Made by a program: the position numbers and the translations under genes
Shown: piece by piece, positions 46,584 through 55,838 of the stretch
Numbering within the stretch: the first letter of the stretch is position 1
Layout of the letters: each line of letters begins with the position of its first letter
Assembly (NCBI GenBank): GCA_050290185.1
Contig: JBNKHE010000004.1
Span: 224,001 to 288,000, forward strand
Direction: 5' to 3'
Source: Pontiella sp.
Lineage (GTDB): Bacteria; Verrucomicrobiota; Kiritimatiellia; Kiritimatiellales; Pontiellaceae
Length of the DNA: 64,000 nucleotides
Notes under the pieces: generated by a model
What the model was told of the DNA's origin: nothing
Seen by the model: only the letters and a program-made list of their open reading frames with translations
Database searches by the model: none

Positions 46584-46788
46584 GCCAGATGGTTTATTCG
46601 AAAACCCAGCCCCTGCCAAGGTTGAACCGCTGGTTCGTCGCCGGTCATTTGCTTCCAAGCCATGCGGATGTTCCGTGAATACGAGGCTTTGATTTGCAAA
46701 GCCAATACTTTTTCCATCTCAAAAAAAGCGGTTTTTAAAGGGATTTTCGGGCGCTGGAAATAAAAACAAAAATAAATGCGGTTTTCGG

Positions 46789-46816
46789 GTAACGATCTGA
46801 ATTCCCACCTCGTATT
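46789..46816 (+). promoter_or_regulatory. ECF-type promoter, copy 1
   Basis: GTAAC-17 bp-CGTATT preceded by A-tracts; mirrored at 49850. Confidence 0.65.
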
Positions 46817-46819
46817 CAT

Positions 46820-46932
46820 AGTTGAACCCAACAACACCCTATTTGAAGCAAACGCAGCTCAAGTGAACCCAAACCCATTGCGTGCTTCCGATACTTACTC
46901 CGAACCCCGCCTAACCAGCGGGGTTTTATTTT
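46820..46932 (+). ncRNA. Candidate sRNA, copy 1, upstream of the kinase (5' end approximate)
   Basis: Two TGAACCCAA motifs, a stem enclosing CTCAAGTGAACCCAAACC, TTACTCC, terminator AACCCCGC-N7-GCGGGGTT-TTATTTT; paralogue at 49881. Confidence 0.65.
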
Positions 46933-46974
46933 GCCCGCAACACACGACAGTGCTACGCTTTCCTTTAACTTTTC

Positions 46975-49194
46975 ATGGATGAAAATGGTATGGACGAGTC
47001 CGAAAACAAGGATCAGCAGCCGGAACAAAAAAACAGGCAACCCAACCGGGAGATCGGAAATCCCAACCTCTTTGCCGGCGACATCGTTTTTTCGGATACT
47101 GAAAAAATCCTTTTCGAAGAGGATTTGCAGGATCAGTCTAAATCCCACGACGATCTGATGGATGGGAATCCGGCCGACCGCTACTCGCCCAACAGAAAAC
47201 TCAACCAAGGCGGAATGAAGGCCATCTGGGAAGTCGATGACCACCGTACGGCCCGCAAGGTGGCTATGGCGCTGATTCAGGACTCCAAGATAGCCGCGAA
47301 GGAGGACATAGATTCATTCCTTTACGAAGCCCGGTTAACGGCAAACCTGCAGCATCCAAACATTATTCCAATCTACGACATCGCCGTCGATGAAGACGGG
47401 AATCCCTATTTCACCATGAAGGCGCTCAAGGGCGAAACCCTCGGCGAGATCATCAGGAAACTGCACGAAGGCAATAGTGCCTACCGTAAACGCTACACCC
47501 GAACCCGCCTGATCGGCATCTTCCTGAAGGTCTGCAACGCCATTGACTATGCCCATACCAAAGGCGTCATCCATCTTGACCTAAAGCCATCCAATGTCAT
47601 TGTCGGCGATTTCGGCGACGTACATGTACTCGATTGGGGCCTATCCACCTTGATCACCCATCTCAATGAATATGATGGAGAACCCGTTTCGTGGCATAGT
47701 ATGGACGATGTGGCCTTGGAAAATGGTCAGACGCTCACCCGATATCTCGAAAGCACCGCCAAACGCCGCCATGTCGTGGGCGGCACCCCGGGCTACATGT
47801 CGCCGGAACAGGCCCAGGGATCGCCGGCGGATATCGACTTTCAAACCGATGTCTACATGCTCGGCTCAATGCTCTACGAAATCCTGACCTACCAGTGCCC
47901 TATCCTTGGCGACACGGTCAAAGAAGTCCTTCAAAAAACTGTGCGAGGCGATTTCCCAACACCAACCAAACGCGCTCCTGAACTCCGCATTCCGCAGGCG
48001 CTTGCCGCCATCGCCATGAAAGCCATGCGGACCGCGCCGGATGAACGCTACGCCAATGTCGCCGCACTGATCCGCGACATCCATCAATATCAGGACGGCT
48101 TCGCCACCATCGCCGAAAACCCAACCTTCTTTACCCACTTTGCCCTACTGGTGCGCCGGCACAAGATGGCGGTCAGCCTGATTGCAGCCTCGGCTGCGCT
48201 TATCACAGTTATTCTGGTGCAGAGCTTCAACGAGATCAAAGCGAGCGAACAGGTAGCGGTCAGCGCCCTGGCCGCGTTGCAGGAAAAAAACGACTATATC
48301 GCCGAAACGGCCAAGCAGGTGGCCCCGGATTACCTCACCCTCGCACAACGCGAGGAAAGGACCTTTGCTTTCGACGCCGCGGAACAGGATCTAGACCGGA
48401 GCCTGGCCTTCGATCCAAACAATCCGGCGGCATGGAAGCTGAAGCTCCGGATGCTGCTGGCGCAGCAACGTTTTACCGAAGCCCGGGAAATCCTTGAGGG
48501 GGAAACCGGACCGGATGATGACGACGCCCTGCGCAAGCTGGCGCGAAGCAGCGGCTATGCCGAGCCGGTGACGGATGCAGACCTCCCCCGGCTGGCCATC
48601 GATTTCCGTTCGCATGGTATGTCCAGCGGACTCCCGCGCCTGTTCCATCACCTCAACCAGCAACCATTTGATCCGGAAACCCGCTTTCCGGCCCTGGCCG
48701 AATCCCTCAAACAACTCAACCCCAATGTTCAGGAGCTCCATTTTAGCTGGCAGGCAGGCGAACCGAATGGCTGGAACATTGACATTGGAAACAACCCGGG
48801 GCTAGACGATATTACACCGCTGTGCGGATTAAACATCGTAAACCTCAAGGCCCATAACATCGGCACACCCAACCTTGCCCTGCTTACCGAAAACGGCATG
48901 CGCTCCCTCGACCTGTCAAAGACGCAGTTGAACCATCTGTTCGACCTGGACCAGCTTGCCGGCCTACGGGAACTCAATATCAACGGAACCCGAATCCGCA
49001 ACATCTCCAATATCGTAAAGTATCCCCAACTCACCTCGCTCGACATCAGCCATATTGATGGCCTTTCGATTTCGCCACAGCTTGTTTGGTGCCGAAATCT
49101 CAAGTGGCTCACCGTTGCAGAAAGATTCCGCAATGATCCAACCATCCAGTCCCTGGCAAACCGCGGCGTCATTATCATCTACACCGACAACTGA
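46975..49194 (+). CDS. Hanks-type Ser/Thr kinase with TM, TPR-like and C-terminal LRR regions
   Basis: GGMK, EARLTANLQHPNI, IHLDLKPSN, LDWG, GTPGYMSPEQ, DVYMLG; LxxLxL repeats. Confidence 0.9.
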   Translation: MDENGMDESENKDQQPEQKNRQPNREIGNPNLFAGDIVFSDTEKILFEEDLQDQSKSHDDLMDGNPADRYSPNRKLNQGGMKAIWEVDDHRTARKVAMALIQDSKIAAKEDIDSFLYEARLTANLQHPNIIPIYDIAVDEDGNPYFTMKALKGETLGEIIRKLHEGNSAYRKRYTRTRLIGIFLKVCNAIDYAHTKGVIHLDLKPSNVIVGDFGDVHVLDWGLSTLITHLNEYDGEPVSWHSMDDVALENGQTLTRYLESTAKRRHVVGGTPGYMSPEQAQGSPADIDFQTDVYMLGSMLYEILTYQCPILGDTVKEVLQKTVRGDFPTPTKRAPELRIPQALAAIAMKAMRTAPDERYANVAALIRDIHQYQDGFATIAENPTFFTHFALLVRRHKMAVSLIAASAALITVILVQSFNEIKASEQVAVSALAALQEKNDYIAETAKQVAPDYLTLAQREERTFAFDAAEQDLDRSLAFDPNNPAAWKLKLRMLLAQQRFTEAREILEGETGPDDDDALRKLARSSGYAEPVTDADLPRLAIDFRSHGMSSGLPRLFHHLNQQPFDPETRFPALAESLKQLNPNVQELHFSWQAGEPNGWNIDIGNNPGLDDITPLCGLNIVNLKAHNIGTPNLALLTENGMRSLDLSKTQLNHLFDLDQLAGLRELNINGTRIRNISNIVKYPQLTSLDISHIDGLSISPQLVWCRNLKWLTVAERFRNDPTIQSLANRGVIIIYTDN

Positions 49195-49195
49195 C

Positions 49196-49804
49196 ATGGA
49201 ATCAGAAAACTACAATCCAACGCGGGTTACCCTGCTCGCCAAACTGAAAAAGACCGAGAACGACCAGGCGTGGCTCGAGTTCGAAACCATCTACCGCGGC
49301 TTTATCCTCAGCCTGATCCTGCGCATGGGCATCAACTCCGAGGATGCCGAGGATATCAGCCAGGCGGTCCTGACCAAGGTATGGCAGAAGATCGAGGATT
49401 TCGAATACAACCAGAACAAAGGCAAATTCCACAACTGGCTCGCCGCCATGACCCGCAACACCGTCAAGGACTTCTTTCGGACCAAAAAGAATTTCATCAC
49501 CGGCCGCGATTCGGTCGAATATCAGGAACAATACCTCGATATCGAGGAGCATGTGCTCCCCGGCATCGAAAACCTCGCGCGCGAAGAATGGGTGCTTCAC
49601 ATCACCAATCTGGCGTGGGACAACATCAAAGATGGCATCTACGAAAGCAAACGCGAGGTGTTCAAACTCGTATCACAGGATGTCTCTACCCGGGAAATTG
49701 CTGAAAAACTCGGTATTTCAGAGGCCAGCGTGCGTGTCTATAAGGCCGAGGTCTTTGAAAAAATGCGCACGGAGATCACCCGTCTCAACCGGGAACTAGG
49801 CTAA
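49196..49804 (+). CDS. ECF RNA polymerase sigma factor (kinase-associated PVC type)
   Basis: TRVTLLAKL..AWLEF..Y, DAEDISQ, GKFHNWL, EIAEKLGIS; starts 1 bp after the kinase stop. Confidence 0.9.
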   Translation: MESENYNPTRVTLLAKLKKTENDQAWLEFETIYRGFILSLILRMGINSEDAEDISQAVLTKVWQKIEDFEYNQNKGKFHNWLAAMTRNTVKDFFRTKKNFITGRDSVEYQEQYLDIEEHVLPGIENLAREEWVLHITNLAWDNIKDGIYESKREVFKLVSQDVSTREIAEKLGISEASVRVYKAEVFEKMRTEITRLNRELG

Positions 49805-49849
49805 AAATACGGATTTTATGAAAAAATCATAAAAAAAGTCCGGTTTCGG

Positions 49850-49877
49850 GTAACGATCCCCCCTGCACCCTCGAATT
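49850..49877 (+). promoter_or_regulatory. ECF-type promoter, copy 2
   Basis: GTAAC-17 bp-CGAATT preceded by A-tracts. Confidence 0.65.
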
Positions 49878-49880
49878 ACT

Positions 49881-49987
49881 TAATGAACCCAACAATTTCA
49901 TAAGGCAAACGCAACGACTCAAGTGAACCCAAACCTGTTGCAGCCAATTACTCCGGCCCCGCCCTAACCCAGCGGGGCTTTTATTTT
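49881..49987 (+). ncRNA. Candidate sRNA, copy 2, downstream of the ECF gene (5' end approximate)
   Basis: Same motif order as copy 1; terminator GCCCCGC-N9-GCGGGGC-TTTTATTTT. Confidence 0.65.
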
Positions 49988-50037
49988 ATCTGAATCAATA
50001 CTCATTATTTATCCCTAGGTTTTGGGGGATCAAAAGG

Positions 50038-50067
50038 GAAAGGCCCCGGCTTGCGCCGGGGCCTTTC
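50038..50067 (-). terminator. Rho-independent terminator after the giant subtilase
   Basis: 13-bp stem GAAAGGCCCCGGC-TTGC-GCCGGGGCCTTTC, followed on the minus strand by CCTTTT. Confidence 0.8.
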
Positions 50068-50141
50068 GAGATACCGGACCCCTTGTTTTAGGAGGGAGGA
50101 CCTGTTCCAAACAGTCCGGATTTTATTTGGGAGATTGATTT

Positions 50142-53100
50142 CTAGTTTCTGACCTCCACCTTGTAGAATCGGCAACCGTCGCTATTCGGGTCAACAATCA
50201 CCATAGGATTGCCATCGCCCGGTTCATCGACGATTAGTTGCTGCCATGTCCCGCCGATTTCGGTGCAATAGTAGACCGTGTAGTAACGACCTGCTACCGA
50301 ATCAAAGACGATATCGCAACCACCTTCAGCAGACGGCTGGATGTCGGAGACATAGAAGTAGGAAGTCGGATCGGTGGCACTGGTGCCGGCAATCACTTCG
50401 TCTCCATCCGGACTGAGGTCACCATCGGTGTCGGAATTCGTTGGATCGTACCCGGCCATGAATTCCTGATAGCTCGTCAGTCCGTCTCCATCGGAATCCG
50501 TCTCGAAGGAAGTAAGCCCGTAATTAATAACGAAACTTTGCAGCGAAGCCGTCAGCGTTGTCCAGGTCTCCCTGGGATCCGTTCCATTGGCAATTTCGAC
50601 GGTATCCAATACCCCGTCGCTATCCGTATCGGCTGACGGATTGACATACTCATAGGCACCAATATCCACCGTATAGTAGGTGTTTGTATCGGCATCCCCA
50701 TCCAAGGGACGCGGCGTATCCTCAATGTCGTACAACGGTGCGCTGTAGTATGTGCCCTTATCCACACAAGGCGACCCAGGCAAGAGGTGATAATTTCCGC
50801 CACCGACATAATTAGGAGTCGCATCGGTGTTGAAACGGTCCACCACAAAACCATATCCGTCGCTGATATCGCAATACCAAGGATCAAACTGTTTGGAACC
50901 CTGACGGCAATGCAACGAATTGTAACGATCATCCCCGGGTTCATACCGAACCGGACTAAGCCACTCGGCATCATTGCAGTAGTTAGTCCAAATGATGGTA
51001 TTGCGGATATATTCCACGAAGTTTCCGAGCGATGTAATGCCGCCTCCGCGCGTCATGGCCAGATTCTCTGCCAACGTGCAGTTAATGGTCCGTGCGGAGC
51101 AACGAGAGCCTACGTAGATGCCTCCCCCCAGACCAAAATCGGGATATTCCTTGTTCTCGGGATAATCCAGATCCAATGCGGATGTACGGTTACCGGCAAT
51201 CACGCAATTCTGAACCAACGGCAAGCTTCCGTCCAACAACAGGATTCCACCGCCATTTTCATCATCGTGCGTTTCATCTACCATATCCTCGATCAGGTTC
51301 GCAAGTTCTGCGATATTGGTTGAGGCCATGCGCGATACACCATTATACGTGTAGTAATCTGGAGCATAGTTGCCGGTCACGGAGCACTGATCGATGGTTG
51401 GAGAGCTGTTCTCGCAGCGGATGCCGCCTTGGCAATCGGAAACCGTGCACCCTATGATCTGGGCAGAAGGATCGTTGACCAGCCAGATTCCCCGCCCAAT
51501 GCCATAGATATTGCTGGCATGCTCGATGACCGTATTCCGAATTTCCAATCCGCTGCTGTCGAACACTATTATGCCACCTGCGGCATAGGAGATGGTGCAA
51601 TCCAGGATACGGGGAGTCGATCCGTCTAAGGCACGGATCGCCACGCCTTCCACGATGTTTGTGATGACGCAGTTCGTTATAACCGGACTCGAATTGAATT
51701 CGCAGTAGATGGCATCGTCGCGGCAGGTTTGAACAATGCAATCGGCAATGGTTGGACTCGTCGCGTCACGACAGACAATACCATGTTCCTCGCCACATGA
51801 GCCATCTGAACAATCCGTATTTTCCAGCGAAGTTTGAATCGTTACTCCGCGCAATACTGTATCAAGCCCTTGTCCACCTTCAAAGATGAAGCCGGCACCC
51901 AGGCCATGGCTTTTCACAATCGTCCTGGAAACGTCGTTTGTGTTTTCAGCCAAAATGCGGAGCTGAAGAGTCCCGGGATTGATATCGCGGTTTCCAACAC
52001 CGTAGTATTGCCCTTCCTGAATAAGAATAGTGTATCCATTGGAAGCGACATTGATGGCTTCCTGAATCGCATCGAACGGATGGTCGATAGAACCATTTTC
52101 GGAAGGATCACTCAATTGGGGGTCCTGTGGCTGGCCGCCAAACAGATACCAATCGTATGGGCCATCATCGTTTACAACAACCGGATCGGAGGCATTGGTG
52201 GCCTGCGTACCCCAGGCAAACTCCCAGTCATCGCTAAATCCGTCGCCGTCAGTATCCACGTTGTCGGGATCGCTTCCGTTGAGATATTCCTGATAGTTCG
52301 AGAGTCCGTCGCCATCATGATCGCCAAAAGCGCCATTATTGGTGTTGATGGTGCCATCATCGAGCGGATTCAAATAGTGGGTTTCCTCCCATCCATCAGG
52401 CAATAAATCGCCATCCGTGTCCGGATTGTTTGGATCCGTGATATACATGTTGGTAATCGGCATGCCGTTGAATGAGAGCGCCACCCGGAAGTCATTGGTG
52501 ATTTCCCAGTTGTCACCCAGTAGATCGTCATCGCTATCGGCTTTATTCGGATTCGTCGCACCGGGATAGTTTACGGCATTGGTAAGTGCATATTCACCCA
52601 AATTTGATAAATCGAGTCCAGGAATCGAGTTGTCGCCATCAGGATCATCCTGAGCATCATCCACCAGCGGATTCAGGCCATTATCGATTTCCCAACCATC
52701 CGGCATAGCGTCGTTATCCGTATCGGGATTCGCCGGATCCGTCCCCGCCAGGCTTTCTTCCAGATTGGTGGCACCGTCGGAGTCGGGATCGTTGGCGGCA
52801 TCGTCCACCAGCGGATTCAGTCCGTTGTCGATTTCCCACTGGTCGCTCATTCCATCGCCATCGGTATCGGCTTCGAGCGGATCGGTCAGATAGAGGTTGT
52901 CCACGCCATTGGTCGTCACTTCGTAGTGATCGGATAAGCCGTCGCCATCCGTATCGGATGTACGCGGATCGGTCAGATAGATCTGCACCTCCTGATAACC
53001 GTCCTCCAGCCCATCGGCGTCCTGATCGGGATTCGCGGGATCAAGATTGGCAAGATATTCGCCCCAGTTGATGATCCCGTCCGAGTCGAAGTCGTTCGTG

Positions 53101-55838
53101 TAGGACTGGTCGAGATTTCCAAAATTAACGATCTCCCAGTTATCGTACATACCGTCCTCATCGGAATCGATCGAACATCTGAAGACATGCAATCCCCTGC
53201 CCTTGCCGGCCACATAGGCATAGCCGTTGGCAATGGTGACCCCATAGGCCTCGATGTTGGCATAATGCGTATAGGGCGTGATATCGCTCAGGTCGGATGC
53301 ATCCATGATACGCAACCCTTTCGCCCCATCGGCCATGTAGAGCAACCCATCGAAATAGGCCACGTCCTCGGCCGAACCGGGGGTATCAGTGCCACCCAGC
53401 TTGGTCTTGGCTGCGTTGTAAACCAGTGCGCCATATTCCTGCAGCGCCACATACAGCTTGTTGTTCTCTGCAAACACAGCCGCACAGTTCCTGTTGCCAT
53501 CGCCATCCGCAATGGATTTAGCCGAATAGGTCGATGACTTGGCGGATGTCGCAATCTTTCCAAGGCCACCGTACATCGCCATGTAGACGGATCCTCCGAC
53601 CAGCGCCACATCGTTGACCTTGAAATTCGGATCGCCGTTGCCGGAAAACGAAGCGGTCACGTAGGCACTGCTCGGGTTGGATATATCAACTACCGTCAGA
53701 CCGTTGGAAACGGACGCCAGATAGGCAAACCCGCCACCCACATCCACTTTGGAAGCGGGAACCGAAACCGAGGACAGCAACACAGGATCCGTCGGGTCGG
53801 AAACATCCACGACGAAGAATCCGTTTTCAGCATCAGCCACATAGGCATAGTCGCCATCCACCCTCACGCCCCGGACCGAGCCGGAGGTGGAATAGGATCC
53901 CACCAACTCCGGATTTTCCGGTTGACTGAGACTTAGTATTTTGAGGCCGAATCCACCGTCGGCTACATAGGCATATCCGTTGGCAACCACGACATCGTAC
54001 GTATCGAGGCACTGGCTGTTGAAGCCCAGATATTGCAGCTTCGGCAACGTACCCATAACATCGCGAGGATTGAATCCGTAGCGGATCTCCCAGCCATCAA
54101 TCAAACTGTCGTCATCCGAATCCGGATCATTTGGAATACACGCGCTCTGGTATTCCTCAAGGTTCGTCAGAAAATCGTTGTCGCCGTCAAGCAGCGCATC
54201 GAGTGGATTGTTTGGATCCAGCCCATAGTTCTCTTCCCACGAATCGGGGATGCCGTCCTTGTCGGAGTCGCTGGCGCTGGCAAACATGGCAAAAACATTC
54301 ATGCGTCCGCCCGAGACCACCTTTCCAGCCAGAACCGGAAGCTCATCAACACTATCCAGCAAGACCTGCTTGGCCTCCGCCGGAGAGATATCCGCATTCA
54401 GGCTGATCAACAGCGTCATCGCACCTGCTACATGGGGACAGGCCATGGAGGTGCCCTGAAGCGTTTCCGTCCCGCCATCGAGATAGGTACTGACAATATT
54501 CACACCCGGTGCGGCCAGGTCCACCGAATTGGCTCCGTAGTTTGAAAATGTCGCCAGATTGTCGTTTTCGTCGGTCGCGGCCACGGCAATGACATTGGGC
54601 AAATCATAGCTGGCCGGATACTGCGGGAGCGAATCGTTATCCGACGAATCATTGCCGGCGGCGGCCACAAAAATGCAACCCTGCTCATTGGCATATTCGA
54701 CCGCATCATAGATCGTCTGGCTGTAGCCCGTACCCCCATAGGAATTCGATAGCACCTTGGCTCCATTGCGGGCCGCGTAGCGGATACCATCGACGATATC
54801 CGAATCCAGCAGGCCCTCTTCGGTTCCAACGCGCACCGGCATGATCGAAGCCGTCCAGCAAACCCCAACCACCTGGTTGGCATTGTTCCCGACTGCGCCG
54901 ATGGTTCCGGCGCAATGCGTTCCATGGCCGTCGCTATCATTGGGGTCGTCGTCGTCGGACACAAAGTCCCAGCCATTGATATCGTCCACATATCCGTTTC
55001 CATCGTTGTCCTTACCGTCTCCGGGGATTTCGATGCTGTTGATCCACAGGTTGGCCTCCAGATCGGGATGATCCAGATCCATGCCGGTGTCGATGACGGC
55101 AACCACCGCATCACTGCTTCCGGTTGTGATATCCCATGCATCGGGCATGGAAATCTTGGGCATACCCCAAAGGTTTCCGTACATCGTATCGTTGGGAACA
55201 GCCGTAAGGTGGCGTACATAATCGGGCTCGGCATAAGCAATCGACCGGGCTTCGGCCGCAAAGTATTCAACGGCCTGTTCGACCGCATCAAGTCCGGGGG
55301 CTTCGAGCCGGACAATGAAGGTATCACCATCGGATAATGTGCGAACCACGGTTGCGTTGTATTGCGCAACCAGTTCCTTTAATTCGTCCGCCGAGCTCCC
55401 CTCGCGGAGATGAACCAGTACATGATCGGCAACCATTTCCATCCGGCCGACTGGAACTAACTTCCGCTGATCAGGATCCTGGCGCAATGTTTCCGTTACA
55501 ATCCTGTTCGGATATTTTCCGGTGCGCTGTACCAGCCTCCGGGATTCCACATCCCCGTTGCTCAGCATGGTTTGACGTTCTGCAAGAACCTTGGATCCAT
55601 CCACCATTGCGGTGCCATTGAATGCTGCACCACCCAATGTTTCAGCGTCCAAGCCCGCTGACGGGGCCGTTGCACTCACTGATTGGGGTTCGGAATCCGT
55701 TTGCCCGCTGATGATCGTGGTTCTCGGCCCCGCGAAGTAGTATATCGCAACCCCTGCCACGAGTAACGCAGCACCAGCCATCGGCCATCCAAAAAACTTC
55801 TTTTTCACAACTGCTCCCATCTTGCCGTATTCCGCCAA
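50142..55838 (-). CDS. Giant multidomain S8 peptidase (subtilase, LVIVD repeats, Ca-binding DxDxDG repeats, parallel beta-helix)
   Basis: VAVIDTG, GHGTHCAG, GTSMACPHVAG; YAYVADG..GL..I.VS.P repeats; many DTDGDG..D.WE..GLNP repeats; start uncertain (55838 or 55820). Confidence 0.88.
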   Translation of the reverse strand: MAEYGKMGAVVKKKFFGWPMAGAALLVAGVAIYYFAGPRTTIISGQTDSEPQSVSATAPSAGLDAETLGGAAFNGTAMVDGSKVLAERQTMLSNGDVESRRLVQRTGKYPNRIVTETLRQDPDQRKLVPVGRMEMVADHVLVHLREGSSADELKELVAQYNATVVRTLSDGDTFIVRLEAPGLDAVEQAVEYFAAEARSIAYAEPDYVRHLTAVPNDTMYGNLWGMPKISMPDAWDITTGSSDAVVAVIDTGMDLDHPDLEANLWINSIEIPGDGKDNDGNGYVDDINGWDFVSDDDDPNDSDGHGTHCAGTIGAVGNNANQVVGVCWTASIMPVRVGTEEGLLDSDIVDGIRYAARNGAKVLSNSYGGTGYSQTIYDAVEYANEQGCIFVAAAGNDSSDNDSLPQYPASYDLPNVIAVAATDENDNLATFSNYGANSVDLAAPGVNIVSTYLDGGTETLQGTSMACPHVAGAMTLLISLNADISPAEAKQVLLDSVDELPVLAGKVVSGGRMNVFAMFASASDSDKDGIPDSWEENYGLDPNNPLDALLDGDNDFLTNLEEYQSACIPNDPDSDDDSLIDGWEIRYGFNPRDVMGTLPKLQYLGFNSQCLDTYDVVVANGYAYVADGGFGLKILSLSQPENPELVGSYSTSGSVRGVRVDGDYAYVADAENGFFVVDVSDPTDPVLLSSVSVPASKVDVGGGFAYLASVSNGLTVVDISNPSSAYVTASFSGNGDPNFKVNDVALVGGSVYMAMYGGLGKIATSAKSSTYSAKSIADGDGNRNCAAVFAENNKLYVALQEYGALVYNAAKTKLGGTDTPGSAEDVAYFDGLLYMADGAKGLRIMDASDLSDITPYTHYANIEAYGVTIANGYAYVAGKGRGLHVFRCSIDSDEDGMYDNWEIVNFGNLDQSYTNDFDSDGIINWGEYLANLDPANPDQDADGLEDGYQEVQIYLTDPRTSDTDGDGLSDHYEVTTNGVDNLYLTDPLEADTDGDGMSDQWEIDNGLNPLVDDAANDPDSDGATNLEESLAGTDPANPDTDNDAMPDGWEIDNGLNPLVDDAQDDPDGDNSIPGLDLSNLGEYALTNAVNYPGATNPNKADSDDDLLGDNWEITNDFRVALSFNGMPITNMYITDPNNPDTDGDLLPDGWEETHYLNPLDDGTINTNNGAFGDHDGDGLSNYQEYLNGSDPDNVDTDGDGFSDDWEFAWGTQATNASDPVVVNDDGPYDWYLFGGQPQDPQLSDPSENGSIDHPFDAIQEAINVASNGYTILIQEGQYYGVGNRDINPGTLQLRILAENTNDVSRTIVKSHGLGAGFIFEGGQGLDTVLRGVTIQTSLENTDCSDGSCGEEHGIVCRDATSPTIADCIVQTCRDDAIYCEFNSSPVITNCVITNIVEGVAIRALDGSTPRILDCTISYAAGGIIVFDSSGLEIRNTVIEHASNIYGIGRGIWLVNDPSAQIIGCTVSDCQGGIRCENSSPTIDQCSVTGNYAPDYYTYNGVSRMASTNIAELANLIEDMVDETHDDENGGGILLLDGSLPLVQNCVIAGNRTSALDLDYPENKEYPDFGLGGGIYVGSRCSARTINCTLAENLAMTRGGGITSLGNFVEYIRNTIIWTNYCNDAEWLSPVRYEPGDDRYNSLHCRQGSKQFDPWYCDISDGYGFVVDRFNTDATPNYVGGGNYHLLPGSPCVDKGTYYSAPLYDIEDTPRPLDGDADTNTYYTVDIGAYEYVNPSADTDSDGVLDTVEIANGTDPRETWTTLTASLQSFVINYGLTSFETDSDGDGLTSYQEFMAGYDPTNSDTDGDLSPDGDEVIAGTSATDPTSYFYVSDIQPSAEGGCDIVFDSVAGRYYTVYYCTEIGGTWQQLIVDEPGDGNPMVIVDPNSDGCRFYKVEVRN

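Follow-up and report, generated by a model that had tools for sequence, protein, structure and literature searches.

In Pontiella sp., an operon encoding a Hanks-type kinase and an ECF-type sigma factor is bracketed by a ~150-bp unit in two diverged copies, each comprising a promoter, an RNA of ~110 nt and a terminator. What do these units encode, what transcribes them and on what would their transcripts act? The original prediction, made on the 64-kb stretch of DNA analysed here (the window), was a circuit leading from the kinase to the sigma factor and from the sigma factor to two sibling sRNAs.

Two structured units around a kinase-ECF operon

Both units were found where they had been predicted, with every feature that had been listed: A1 lies before the kinase gene and A2 after the ECF gene, as direct repeats with 3 kb between them. 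Their mean column identity is 79% (alignment of 229 columns), and 70-79% across comparisons. The 18-mer CTCAAGTGAACCCAAACC occurs exactly twice in the window (46858-46875 and 49918-49935), for a chance expectation of 0.05 matches, and at least two occurrences were obtained in 0/100 shuffles. TTCGGGTAACGATC (46784-46797 and 49845-49858) is weaker alone, at least two matches with up to two mismatches being obtained in 8/100 shuffles.

All features of the locus are on the + strand. As read from the sequence, the A1 promoter (46758-46815) comprises an A-rich tract (46758-46777), a -35 element GTAAC (46789-46793), a 17-nt spacer and a -10 element CGTAT (46811-46815); the A2 promoter (49821-49876) has an A-rich tract (49821-49838), GTAAC (49850-49854), a 17-nt spacer and CGAAT (49872-49876). 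The proposed GTAAC-N17 arrangement thus stood in both copies, and the -10 element of copy 2 was corrected to CGAAT, the element being CGTAT in nearly all homologues. The predicted A1 RNA (~112 nt, 46821-46932, start placed from the promoter to within 3 nt; covariance model CM R1, 119.3 bits, fold and covariation) carries a 5' motif, GAACCCAACAA (46824-46834), a hairpin (46845-46888) with the 18-mer in its loop, UUACUCC (46895-46901) and a terminator (46902-46932). The predicted A2 RNA (~106 nt, 49882-49987; CM R1, 62.5 bits, and fold) has the same order: 5' motif (49885-49895), hairpin (49904-49945) with the 18-mer in its loop, UUACUCC (49948-49954) and terminator (49956-49987). Among A RNAs the single-stranded motif GAACCCAA is invariant and present twice, once in the hairpin loop of 19-25 nt, and UUACUCC, proposed as an anti-SD-like element, is nearly invariant and single-stranded. 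The + strand of A1 folds at -31.4 kcal/mol (z -5.2, reached by 0/200 shuffles) and that of A2 at -24.4 kcal/mol (z -2.1, reached by 8/200), while the - strands fold no better than shuffles (z -1.4 and -0.1, respectively). No conserved ORF was found in the A RNAs, in agreement with the prediction; only 27 of 75 copies have an ATG ahead of AACCC. In conclusion, A1 and A2 are paralogous structured sRNA genes, each with its own promoter and intrinsic terminator, and with predicted transcripts.

The kinase gene (46975-49194; Pfam Pkinase 3.5e-30, TPR, LRR) probably starts at ATG 46990, according to the alignment of orthologues, and encodes a kinase domain, a single hydrophobic helix, and TPR and LRR repeats. 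Aligned with PknB and 17 orthologues, the kinase shows the pattern GGMK / VAMA / HLD / DWG, which is WNK-like, and lacks the canonical beta3 lysine. The ECF gene (49196-49804, 202 aa; Sigma70_r2 6.8e-13, r4_2/GerE) begins 1 nt past the kinase stop codon. Its product scores 72.5 bits with TIGR02937, with no specific subfamily above cut-off, and keeps an acidic EDAEDISQA in sigma2.2. No anti-sigma gene was seen beside it at the locus.

Since A1 separates an ECF-type promoter from the operon, it might be a cis-acting leader or attenuator, read-through providing autoregulation, and A2 a mere terminator region; the terminator of A2 is the first after the ECF stop codon and would end the operon transcript too. 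We regard this cis-acting role as highly improbable. First, A2, with a promoter of its own, is oriented towards a convergent gene. Second, some clades carry homologues that have the same promoter and terminator and occur on their own, at unrelated loci (porin-sRNA-DEAD-box helicase and EF-G-sRNA-GspE); A is therefore an independent gene and not a leader. Third, a sigma70-like promoter (TTGCCC 46931-46936, N17, TGC-TACGCT 46951-46959), followed by the palindrome TTTTCAT-GG-ATGAAAA (46970-46985; whole element 46931-46985), lies between the A1 terminator and the kinase gene. It follows 21 of the 26 copies upstream of the kinase, and is also kept where the operon has no sRNA upstream. Autoregulation by read-through, as first proposed, may still occur, but the operon has this second promoter downstream of the A1 terminator.

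A new RNA family restricted to Pontiella

The expectation that the RNA would be novel was borne out, as no Rfam match was obtained for the A unit. CM R1 matched in 45 of 53 genomes of Pontiella (GTDB genus), including 22/22 high-quality ones, and CM R2 in 47 of the 52 other Pontiella genomes; among 36 other Kiritimatiellales genomes there was a single marginal CM R2 match (E 5.7e-4). The genome under study has two A copies and one 38-nt match elsewhere, and its relatives have one to four copies; a dispersed repeat or MITE was rejected on these numbers.

The compensating stem changes noticed between the two copies proved general. Across 75 homologous copies, double-sided changes affect 14 of the 16 pairs of the hairpin and terminator, and 95.5% of cells are paired (35-56% in slid controls). 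Double-change cells number 124, for 28.9 in shuffles (reached by 0/500), and G-U pairs occupy about 54 of 1104 cells, which fits transcription of A from the + strand. Stems that covary with many G-U pairs are the signature of a structure under selection at the RNA level. These properties, and the position of the motifs in hairpin loops, make it extremely improbable that the units act as DNA, either as orientation-free operator sites or as direct repeats for recombination around the operon. The motif does occur in opposite orientation in A and in the B sRNA genes described below, and the units do form direct repeats around 3 kb; however, the operon persists without the repeats, which are just 70-79% identical.

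The promoter and the neighbouring sigma factor

The assignment of an ECF-type promoter held across the family: TAAC-N17-CGTA is present in 72 of the 75 copies, with a spacer of always 17 nt, A2 being one of only three copies without CGTA. As had been suggested, the genome was scanned for further instances, and only the two A promoters stood out: with a PWM, A1 ranked first (49.9) and A2 second (40.9), the next match scoring 19.5. The pattern GRRTAAC-N17-CGTAW matched 21 times in five genomes (22 for the reversed-pattern control), and 11 of these matches were A promoters; the 10 others, located in coding-like sequence and devoid of an A tract, are at control level. Strong instances of this promoter in the five genomes are restricted to A genes.

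A linkage of the family to kinase-ECF loci, to be sought by covariance-model search, was found: the order A1-kinase-ECF-A2 is syntenic in 16 genomes. Orthologues of the ECF sigma (73-94% identity) are present in 46 of 53 Pontiella genomes and in none of 36 other genomes of the order, a taxonomic range common to the ECF orthologues and the A RNAs. In a small-genome clade, both promoters are retained at the operon despite diverged RNAs. From adjacency and co-distribution, the neighbouring ECF likely transcribes the A promoters.

It is rather unlikely that another sigma factor reads these promoters and that the bracket reflects co-regulation or history. In a 9-genome subclade the operon has neither a flanking A gene nor an ECF-type promoter, and A, under the same promoter, is located elsewhere; the genome under study encodes 22 ECF candidates; and GTAAC/CGTA resembles generic SigX/SigW-type motifs. 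Against this, the A promoter occupies a classical autoregulatory position upstream of the ECF operon in 16 genomes, and is found again directly after it; it is kept at the operon even with diverged RNAs; the narrow taxonomic range of the RNA family is also that of the ECF orthologue; and no further strong promoter instances mark the operon of another sigma.

As for the upstream step, we infer the kinase-ECF-sRNA wiring from adjacency. The proposed circuit gained terminated sRNA genes, an ECF-type promoter and synteny, and was weakened by the acidic sigma2.2 of the sigma factor, the missing beta3 lysine of the kinase and the nine genomes without flanking copies.

In Vibrio, LuxO and sigma54 drive the Qrr RNAs, sibling sRNAs on one dedicated promoter type that constitute essentially the whole output of the regulator, with one sRNA gene adjoining the regulator operon; Qrr RNAs require Hfq and act on mRNAs, and the system uses sigma54 and a response regulator. 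The A genes are likewise siblings with one promoter type next to a regulator operon, but the Pontiella system has an ECF sigma and a Hanks kinase, with no homology. The sigmaE (RpoE) sRNAs MicA, RybB and MicL of enterobacteria and MicV/VrrA of Vibrio are similar to A in having an ECF-sigma promoter, an intrinsic terminator and conserved single-stranded seeds, as the non-coding arm of an ECF response. They differ in that A has no sequence or structure homology to them (no Rfam match), that Hfq was not found in the Pontiella genome under study (95.5% complete), that a Hanks kinase, and not an anti-sigma, is encoded together with the sigma, that the A genes flank the sigma operon, and that the A promoter was found at sRNA genes only, with no large protein regulon.

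SigAb of Acinetobacter baumannii is also a lineage-specific ECF, and is described as having a very small direct regulon that includes the sRNA SabS and its own operon (PMC12153292). Its promoter, of the GTCAAC-N17-CGTT type, is near SigX TGTAAC/CGWC and the GTAAC-N17-CGTAT found here; unlike the Pontiella ECF, which lies beside a kinase gene, SigAb is described there as controlled by the anti-sigma-like AabA and AabB, and as having one sRNA, not siblings bracketing the operon (PMC12153292). It belongs to a different phylum and shows no homology to the system studied here. The ECF43 pairs EcfP-PknT and EcfK-PknS similarly associate an ECF with a co-encoded transmembrane Hanks-type kinase (PMC13147305, PMC7826278), and the Pontiella ECF resembles them in that no anti-sigma gene was seen beside it. 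However, phospho-activated ECF43 members are described as carrying an uncharged, Thr-bearing QTTA-type motif and no acidic sigma2.2 motif (PMC13147305), whereas the Pontiella sigma retains an acidic DAED in sigma2.2 and its kinase has a WNK-like lysine arrangement.

Complementarity to a second sRNA family

The suggestion that GAACCCAA acts as a seed gained support, as the 5' parts of a second sRNA family, found only in Pontiella and with subfamilies B1 and B2, carry complements of both A motifs. CM R3, built for the B family, matched in 39 of 52 other Pontiella genomes and in 0/36 outside the genus. In the B stem, pairing reaches 97.8% and covariation is seen in 12 of 13 pairs; the terminator loop, UUUCCCUCCUCUUUU, is invariant, CU-rich and anti-Shine-Dalgarno-like.

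For B1, 26 of 54 pairs with A have a duplex energy better than any of 200 shuffles. The duplexes of the genome under study reach -43.8 kcal/mol (z -5.9) and -36.3 kcal/mol (z -4.7). When the cost of opening the structure within each RNA is counted, A-B cofolding gains only -9.5 and -12.3 kcal/mol, reached by 8/100 and 9/100 shuffles. Cognate A-B1 pairs are the more stable, at -40.3 against -38.6 for non-cognate pairs (reached by 37 of 10000 permutations, uncorrected for phylogeny). A perfect loop 15-mer is present in 19/23 B1-positive and 5/19 B1-negative genomes (Fisher p 4e-4, uncorrected for phylogeny); no B1-like site was found in the five genomes of the B1-negative clade that retains the perfect loop. 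The B2 pattern occurs in 20/52 genomes (reversed control 0/53), and a perfect complement of 10-14 nt lies at the A 5' motif in 41 of 44 A-B2 pairs; in 16 of the 44, the best of 200 shuffles was at least as long. The genome under study has B1; B2 was not found there, and the A 5' motif is still kept. In the small-genome clade, the diverged A RNAs find no match in the B-like RNAs.

Two other functions of the motifs were considered. A could comprise classical mRNA-targeting sRNAs with GAACCCAA and/or UUACUCC as seeds, B sponging A secondarily or the complementarity being non-functional. This is an unlikely reading that nevertheless deserves serious attention: genomes in which neither B1 nor B2 was detected still conserve the loop and 5' motif, UUACUCC hardly varies and is unpaired, sRNAs that depend on sigmaE typically carry their seeds at the 5' end, and this genome makes use of Shine-Dalgarno sequences (324/1181 long ORFs, 84/1181 control windows). 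However, the mRNA target scan gave no enrichment and nothing clear (26 unconvincing TTGGGTT sites near plausible starts), the 12-mer complement occurs at chance level in the genome, and two B subfamilies with 10-19 nt of complementarity to one A motif each, kept in ~20-25 genomes, are hard to dismiss. That the motifs are kept where B partners are missing indicates that A probably has further targets besides B. A CsrB-like function, the two motifs sequestering an RNA-binding protein, is highly improbable. The motif does occur twice, with one of its copies in a hairpin loop, Hfq was not found, and A adjoins a DEAD-box helicase gene in one clade; but there are just two motifs per RNA, no candidate protein was found, and the exact complements in two other sRNA subfamilies would be left unexplained.

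We put at about even the chances that A1 and A2 are paralogous sRNAs flanking the operon, likely transcribed by its ECF, and predicted to pair in trans with B1 and B2 via GAACCCAA. A signal at the TPR/LRR ectodomain of the membrane kinase would activate the co-encoded sigma, which would fire GTAAC-N17-CGTAT promoters, their only strong instances being the two to four A genes; read-through of the A1 terminator could exert positive feedback on the operon, alongside its own sigma70-like promoter. The A RNAs would display GAACCCAACAA near the 5' end and CAAGUGAACCCAAACC in the hairpin loop; GGUUUGGG(U/G)UUCACUUG in the G/U-rich 5' part of B1 would be the pairing site of the loop motif, and the loop UUGUUGGGUUC of B2 that of the 5' motif. 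With the B terminator loop as a putative anti-Shine-Dalgarno seed, induced A RNAs would titrate or destabilise B, by sponge or anti-sRNA logic, and relieve B targets. The reverse, B sponging A, may also apply.

In SroC-GcvB-type sponges (PMC4474525), too, one RNA would sequester or destabilise another sRNA through a conserved stretch complementary to its functional region; known sponges derive mostly from mRNAs or tRNA spacers and are Hfq-dependent. In contrast, A and B are both stand-alone genes with their own promoters, with two sites per A RNA, for two B subfamilies, and their interaction is a predicted one. No regulatory RNA of this phylum was described in the literature searched. The A and B families are previously undescribed, and their complementary sequences suggest an ECF-controlled sRNA/anti-sRNA pair.

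Two sRNA genes flanking the kinase-sigma operon

Two direct copies of a unit of about 150 bp are present inside 46740-50020, with 79% column identity over 229 columns. Copy 1 lies directly 5' of a gene for a 739-aa Pkinase-TPR-LRR protein (46975-49194, + strand), and copy 2 directly 3' of a gene for a 202-aa ECF-type sigma factor (49196-49804, + strand); the sRNA genes that they carry, both on the + strand, are called here A1 (46821-46932) and A2 (49882-49987). All the motifs listed in the original prediction were found in both units, and the 18-mer said to be invariant occurs exactly twice in the window for 0.05 expected occurrences; two occurrences were counted for the promoter-like 14-mer as well, with weaker statistics than for the 18-mer. 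Between A2 and a convergent S8 protease gene (50142-55838, minus strand; 1898-aa S8 subtilase / LVIVD / beta-helix protein), a strong bidirectional terminator hairpin was observed (50031-50091). BjrC68 of Rfam was considered for this hairpin; it scored 37.7 for a threshold of 39 bits and most likely matches as a terminator only.

The predicted fold of the + strand of each copy has, from the 5' end, an unpaired stretch, a hairpin of two tiers with a large loop, UUACUCC, also unpaired, and the terminator. Compared with shuffled sequences this fold had a z of -5.2 for copy 1 and of -2.1 for copy 2, and the - strand of both copies folded no better than shuffles. The prediction that the stems differ between copies and still pair holds well beyond these two sequences: in 75 copies aligned to the model, 95.5% of the pair cells were standard pairs, and changes on both sides were observed in 14 of the 16 pairs of the hairpin and terminator. 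Double-change cells numbered 124 versus 28.9 +/- 9 in shuffles (0/500), and control structures slid by 1-3 columns were only 35-56% paired, these covariation figures being favoured by an alignment that was fitted to the structure. Single-sequence folds recovered the hairpin in roughly 27 of 31 cases, and about 54 pair cells are G-U, which would mismatch on the other strand. Conservation is highest at unpaired positions, namely GAACCCAACAA close to the 5' end, CAAGUGAACCCAAAC within the loop, and UACUCC ahead of the terminator. No start codon is conserved among the copies. The upstream-of-kinase copies of genomes G030 and G073 (loci L096:2533-2617 and L098:2474-2558) are devoid of the whole loop hairpin; the remaining 85 nt keep the promoter, the 5' motif, UACUCC and the terminator. 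These two genomes gave no B-family match (see below), and the loop motif is altered in their second A copies.

No Rfam 15 family matched the 64-kb window at the gathering threshold, and a relaxed search of the A units (E<=10) returned only noise, Trp_leader (18.9 bits, threshold 41) and ClpQY_promoter (14.4, threshold 42); the Rfam search advocated in the original prediction thus leaves the A units without a known family. Nothing relevant on small RNAs of Pontiella or its wider group turned up in the literature searched. The genome that holds the window (3.58 Mb, 95.5% complete) contains only two A copies and one 38-nt match on another contig. Relatives have 1-4 copies, at few conserved loci, and with such numbers a MITE or other dispersed repeat, which the original prediction had named among the findings that would refute it, is rejected. 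By blastn, A was found in 31 of 36 genomes of the same genus and in 0 of 24 from other families of the order. RNAalifold run on a plain MAFFT alignment produced a meaningless long-range structure with the stem misaligned, hence a first covariance model (R1) was built on a hand-set structure; it detected A in 45 of 53 genus genomes, the present one included, and in all 22 high-quality ones. A second model (R2), built on the 75 copies, detected A in 47 of 52 other genus genomes, in 0 of 1 from a sister genus and, among 35 genomes of other families, gave one marginal match (E 5.7e-4).

This search of relatives, as suggested originally, recovered the linkage with the kinase and ECF genes: 16 genomes have the order A1-kinase-ECF-A2, and several others show it as far as contig ends allow. 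In a clade of small genomes both promoters are present at both positions and the RNAs have diverged, with ACCCA and ACUCC motifs persisting. Nine other genomes have the operon without a flanking A gene or ECF-type promoter; in this clade an A gene has an Alginate_exp-like porin gene on one side and a gene for a DEAD-box RNA helicase on the other. The helicase gene has a TTGACA-N17-TAGGTT promoter of its own. Third A copies, in large genomes, are flanked by EF-G and a GspE-type ATPase gene. Loci L020, L022, L024, L027, L029, L076 and L089 show these two arrangements.

A cis-regulatory leader or attenuator of the operon was also considered. It is rejected, since other copies follow the ECF gene and face convergent genes or stand at unrelated loci, and since the operon promoter is 3' of the A1 terminator. 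Of 26 upstream-of-kinase copies, 21 have this sigma70-like promoter (TTGCCC-N17-TGnTAC..T) past their terminator; it is accompanied by a palindrome directly before the kinase start, and both are kept where A1 is absent. Because of the copies at unrelated loci and the separate operon promoter, the A units are independent genes and not leaders; with a covarying hairpin and terminator, each is a stand-alone gene with an intrinsic terminator. Autoregulation of the operon by read-through from A1 is possible and is not needed. The palindrome (46970-46985) is TTTTCAT-GG-ATGAAAA here and TTTTCCAAnnnTTGGAAAA or TTTCATACA..TGTATGAAA in relatives (equivalent sites in loci L061-L114); it lies past the sigma70-like promoter and ahead of the kinase start, where it may serve as an operator or as a 5'-UTR hairpin.

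The A promoter, the sigma factor and the kinase

The proposed ECF-type promoter proved general: TAAC-N17-CGTA precedes 72 of the 75 A copies; the spacer is always 17 nt, an A tract further upstream is common to them, and their extended consensus is TTTnnGrGTAACr...gCCctCGTAT. The -10 element of copy 2 (49872-49876) is CGAAT, whereas that of copy 1 and of nearly all homologues is CGTAT; the A2 promoter may be weakened in this genome. This architecture is near those of SigX (TGTAAC/CGWC) and SigAb (GTCAAC-N17-CGTT) (PMC12153292).

The genome scan for this promoter, proposed along with it, found strong instances only at A genes. In the genome holding the window, a position weight matrix of A promoters retrieved just the two A promoters, with scores of 49.9 and 40.9, the next site scoring 19.5; the bare core motif was not enriched there (11 matches for an estimated 20 or so expected). 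In five genomes, four of them assembled in 1-10 contigs, GRRTAAC-N17-CGTAW was present at 21 sites, of which 11 are A promoters; the other 10 are at the level of the reversed-pattern control (22), have no A tract and are coding-like. The A promoter is sharply defined, with only 2-4 instances per genome. We regard the A sRNA genes as real and new, and likewise the ECF-type promoters that precede them.

The sigma gene starts 1 nt after the kinase stop codon, and every orthologous locus examined has both genes of the pair. A sigma orthologue (at least 73% identity; 73-94% in close relatives) is present in 46 of 53 genus genomes, and outside the genus only paralogues at 29-39% identity were found. 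From its adjacency to the A genes and its co-distribution with them, this ECF sigma factor is likely to drive the A promoters. It is a divergent ECF protein: only the general ECF superfamily model of NCBIfam scored above cut-off, and its best solved relative is SigW. Its sigma2.2 region reads NSEDAEDISQAVL, with acidic residues kept, aligned to AEDIAQ of SigW. As described in a report on ECF43 (PMC13147305), members of that group have uncharged residues in place of the sigma2.2 DxxD and a conserved phospho-acceptor threonine (QTTA-type), at which phosphorylation is needed. The Pontiella sigma factor resembles ECF43 in being co-encoded with a Hanks-type kinase, but differs from it in having no QTTA-type sigma2.2 motif and in retaining the acidic residues. 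No anti-sigma gene was seen adjacent to the operon.

The kinase domain is encoded by 47140-47700, and a hydrophobic stretch read from the sequence, MAVSLIAASAALITVILV, separates it from the TPR/LRR part. Aligned to PknB, the kinase has a lysine in its Gly loop (GGMK), VAMA in place of VAVK, hence no beta3 lysine, and HLD, DWG and SPE motifs, a pattern observed in 17 of 17 orthologues. We take this lysine arrangement to be of the WNK type. A conserved N-terminal extension of about 60 aa (REIGN..LFA..I.FS.TE.ILFEEDL) lies ahead of the kinase domain, and the true start is probably the ATG at 46990.

A second sRNA family and its predicted pairing with A

The 38-nt match in the genome holding the window (160882-160919 of contig C2) is part of a second conserved element, called here B, found by blastn in 24 of 52 genomes. 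Eight B-family loci had no Rfam match at E<=0.01. On the strand opposite to the 38-nt match, B resembles a compact sRNA gene: it has an ECF-like promoter, a 5' region of about 35 nt and a 13-bp GC-rich terminator stem with an invariant CU-rich loop, UUUCCCUCCUCUUUU, followed by 7-8 U. Pairing in the stem reaches 97.8%, and 12 of the 13 pairs covary; the strand is fixed by G-U pairs, which fill about 49 of the 412 cells. A covariance model of B (R3) detected it in 39 of 52 other genus genomes and in 0 of 36 outside the genus, with 1-14 copies per genome, frequently in tandem, and several subfamilies of 5' regions (loci L183-L224 and L238-L275 were examined). A and B are two new sRNA families, well supported by covariation.

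Two of these subfamilies are complementary to A. B1, found in about 25 genomes including the present one (C2:160844-160929, minus strand), carries GGUUUGGG(U/G)UUCACUUG(A/G)G, which is complementary to the A loop. Its neighbours are often a Gfo/Idh/MocA oxidoreductase gene on one side and, on the other, a gene for a protein of about 245 aa, LuxR/GerE-like in one locus. B2 has a covarying 5' hairpin with UUGUUGGGUUC in its loop, complementary to the A 5' motif; 21 genuine sites with this pattern are spread over 20 of 52 genomes, versus 0 for the reversed control. In the remaining B copies the 5' parts are unrelated. At 40-70 nt upstream of B2 (L254-L275), some loci have a palindrome, GTTCTCA-N-TGAGAAC, and others a sigmaE-like TGAACAT-N16-GTCTAA; these two elements suggest that B2 copies are driven by different regulators.

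Full-length A and B duplexes were dominated by terminator-terminator pairing, and only accessible parts were used instead. The A loop matches the B1 5' region over 8 bp, a 1-nt bulge and a further 8-11 bp. With terminators removed, 26 of 54 same-genome A-B1 pairs were more stable than all 200 dinucleotide shuffles, and upstream-of-kinase A copies reached -36 to -48 kcal/mol with B1. Without correction for phylogeny, cognate A-B1 pairs were slightly more stable than non-cognate ones (37/10000 permutations), and a perfect A loop 15-mer was present in 19 of 23 B1-positive versus 5 of 19 B1-negative genomes. The A 5' motif matched the B2 loop over 10-14 nt in 41 of 44 A-B2 pairs, a length that shuffles sometimes attain. 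The net gain of A-B cofolding was modest, being reached by 8/100 and 9/100 shuffles, and the A motifs are kept in some genomes that lack B1 or B2. In the small-genome clade, B-like RNAs have unrelated 5' parts, and no change matching the diverged A RNAs, that is no compensatory evidence, was found; in the clade where the operon has no flanking A copies, no B1-like site was found besides the antisense of A itself.

Extended conserved complementarity of accessible regions, as expected of an sRNA sponge or anti-sRNA pair, was found for A with both B1 and B2. We propose, as a specific prediction drawn from these sequences, that A would act by pairing with B sRNAs. In a search for other targets in the genome holding the window, the complement of the A loop 12-mer was present at chance level only; TTGGGTT lay close to SD-preceded starts at 26 sites, none of them convincing, and no mRNA target is claimed. 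Hfq (PF17209) was not found in this 95.5% complete genome, positive controls having responded.

Precedents and significance

Qrr/LuxO is among the closest precedents of the A system. Others are sigmaE-dependent sRNAs, SigAb-SabS (PMC12153292) and sRNA sponges (PMC4474525). In the literature searched, no regulatory RNA is described for Kiritimatiellota.

The boldest scheme, which we consider rather unlikely, is that a receptor Hanks kinase of WNK-like type acts on the ECF sigma factor, the entire direct regulon of which would be sibling anti-sRNAs, with two decoy sites each, titrating B1 and B2, subfamilies within a multi-copy sRNA family that has anti-Shine-Dalgarno loops; a membrane signal of Kiritimatiellota would then have a purely RNA-against-RNA output. 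The WNK-like, ECF-linked kinase is a testable oddity for the biology of sigma-factor phosphorylation, and for A and B the locus yields a concrete prediction, antagonism between sRNAs. Pontiella strains, relatives of this genome among them, are in culture, which makes these predictions directly testable. Should they be confirmed, this locus would be a clear case from nature of an ECF sigma factor with a direct output of sRNAs only, beyond the small SigAb regulon, and an example of sponge sRNAs that stand alone, in a genome in which Hfq was not found.
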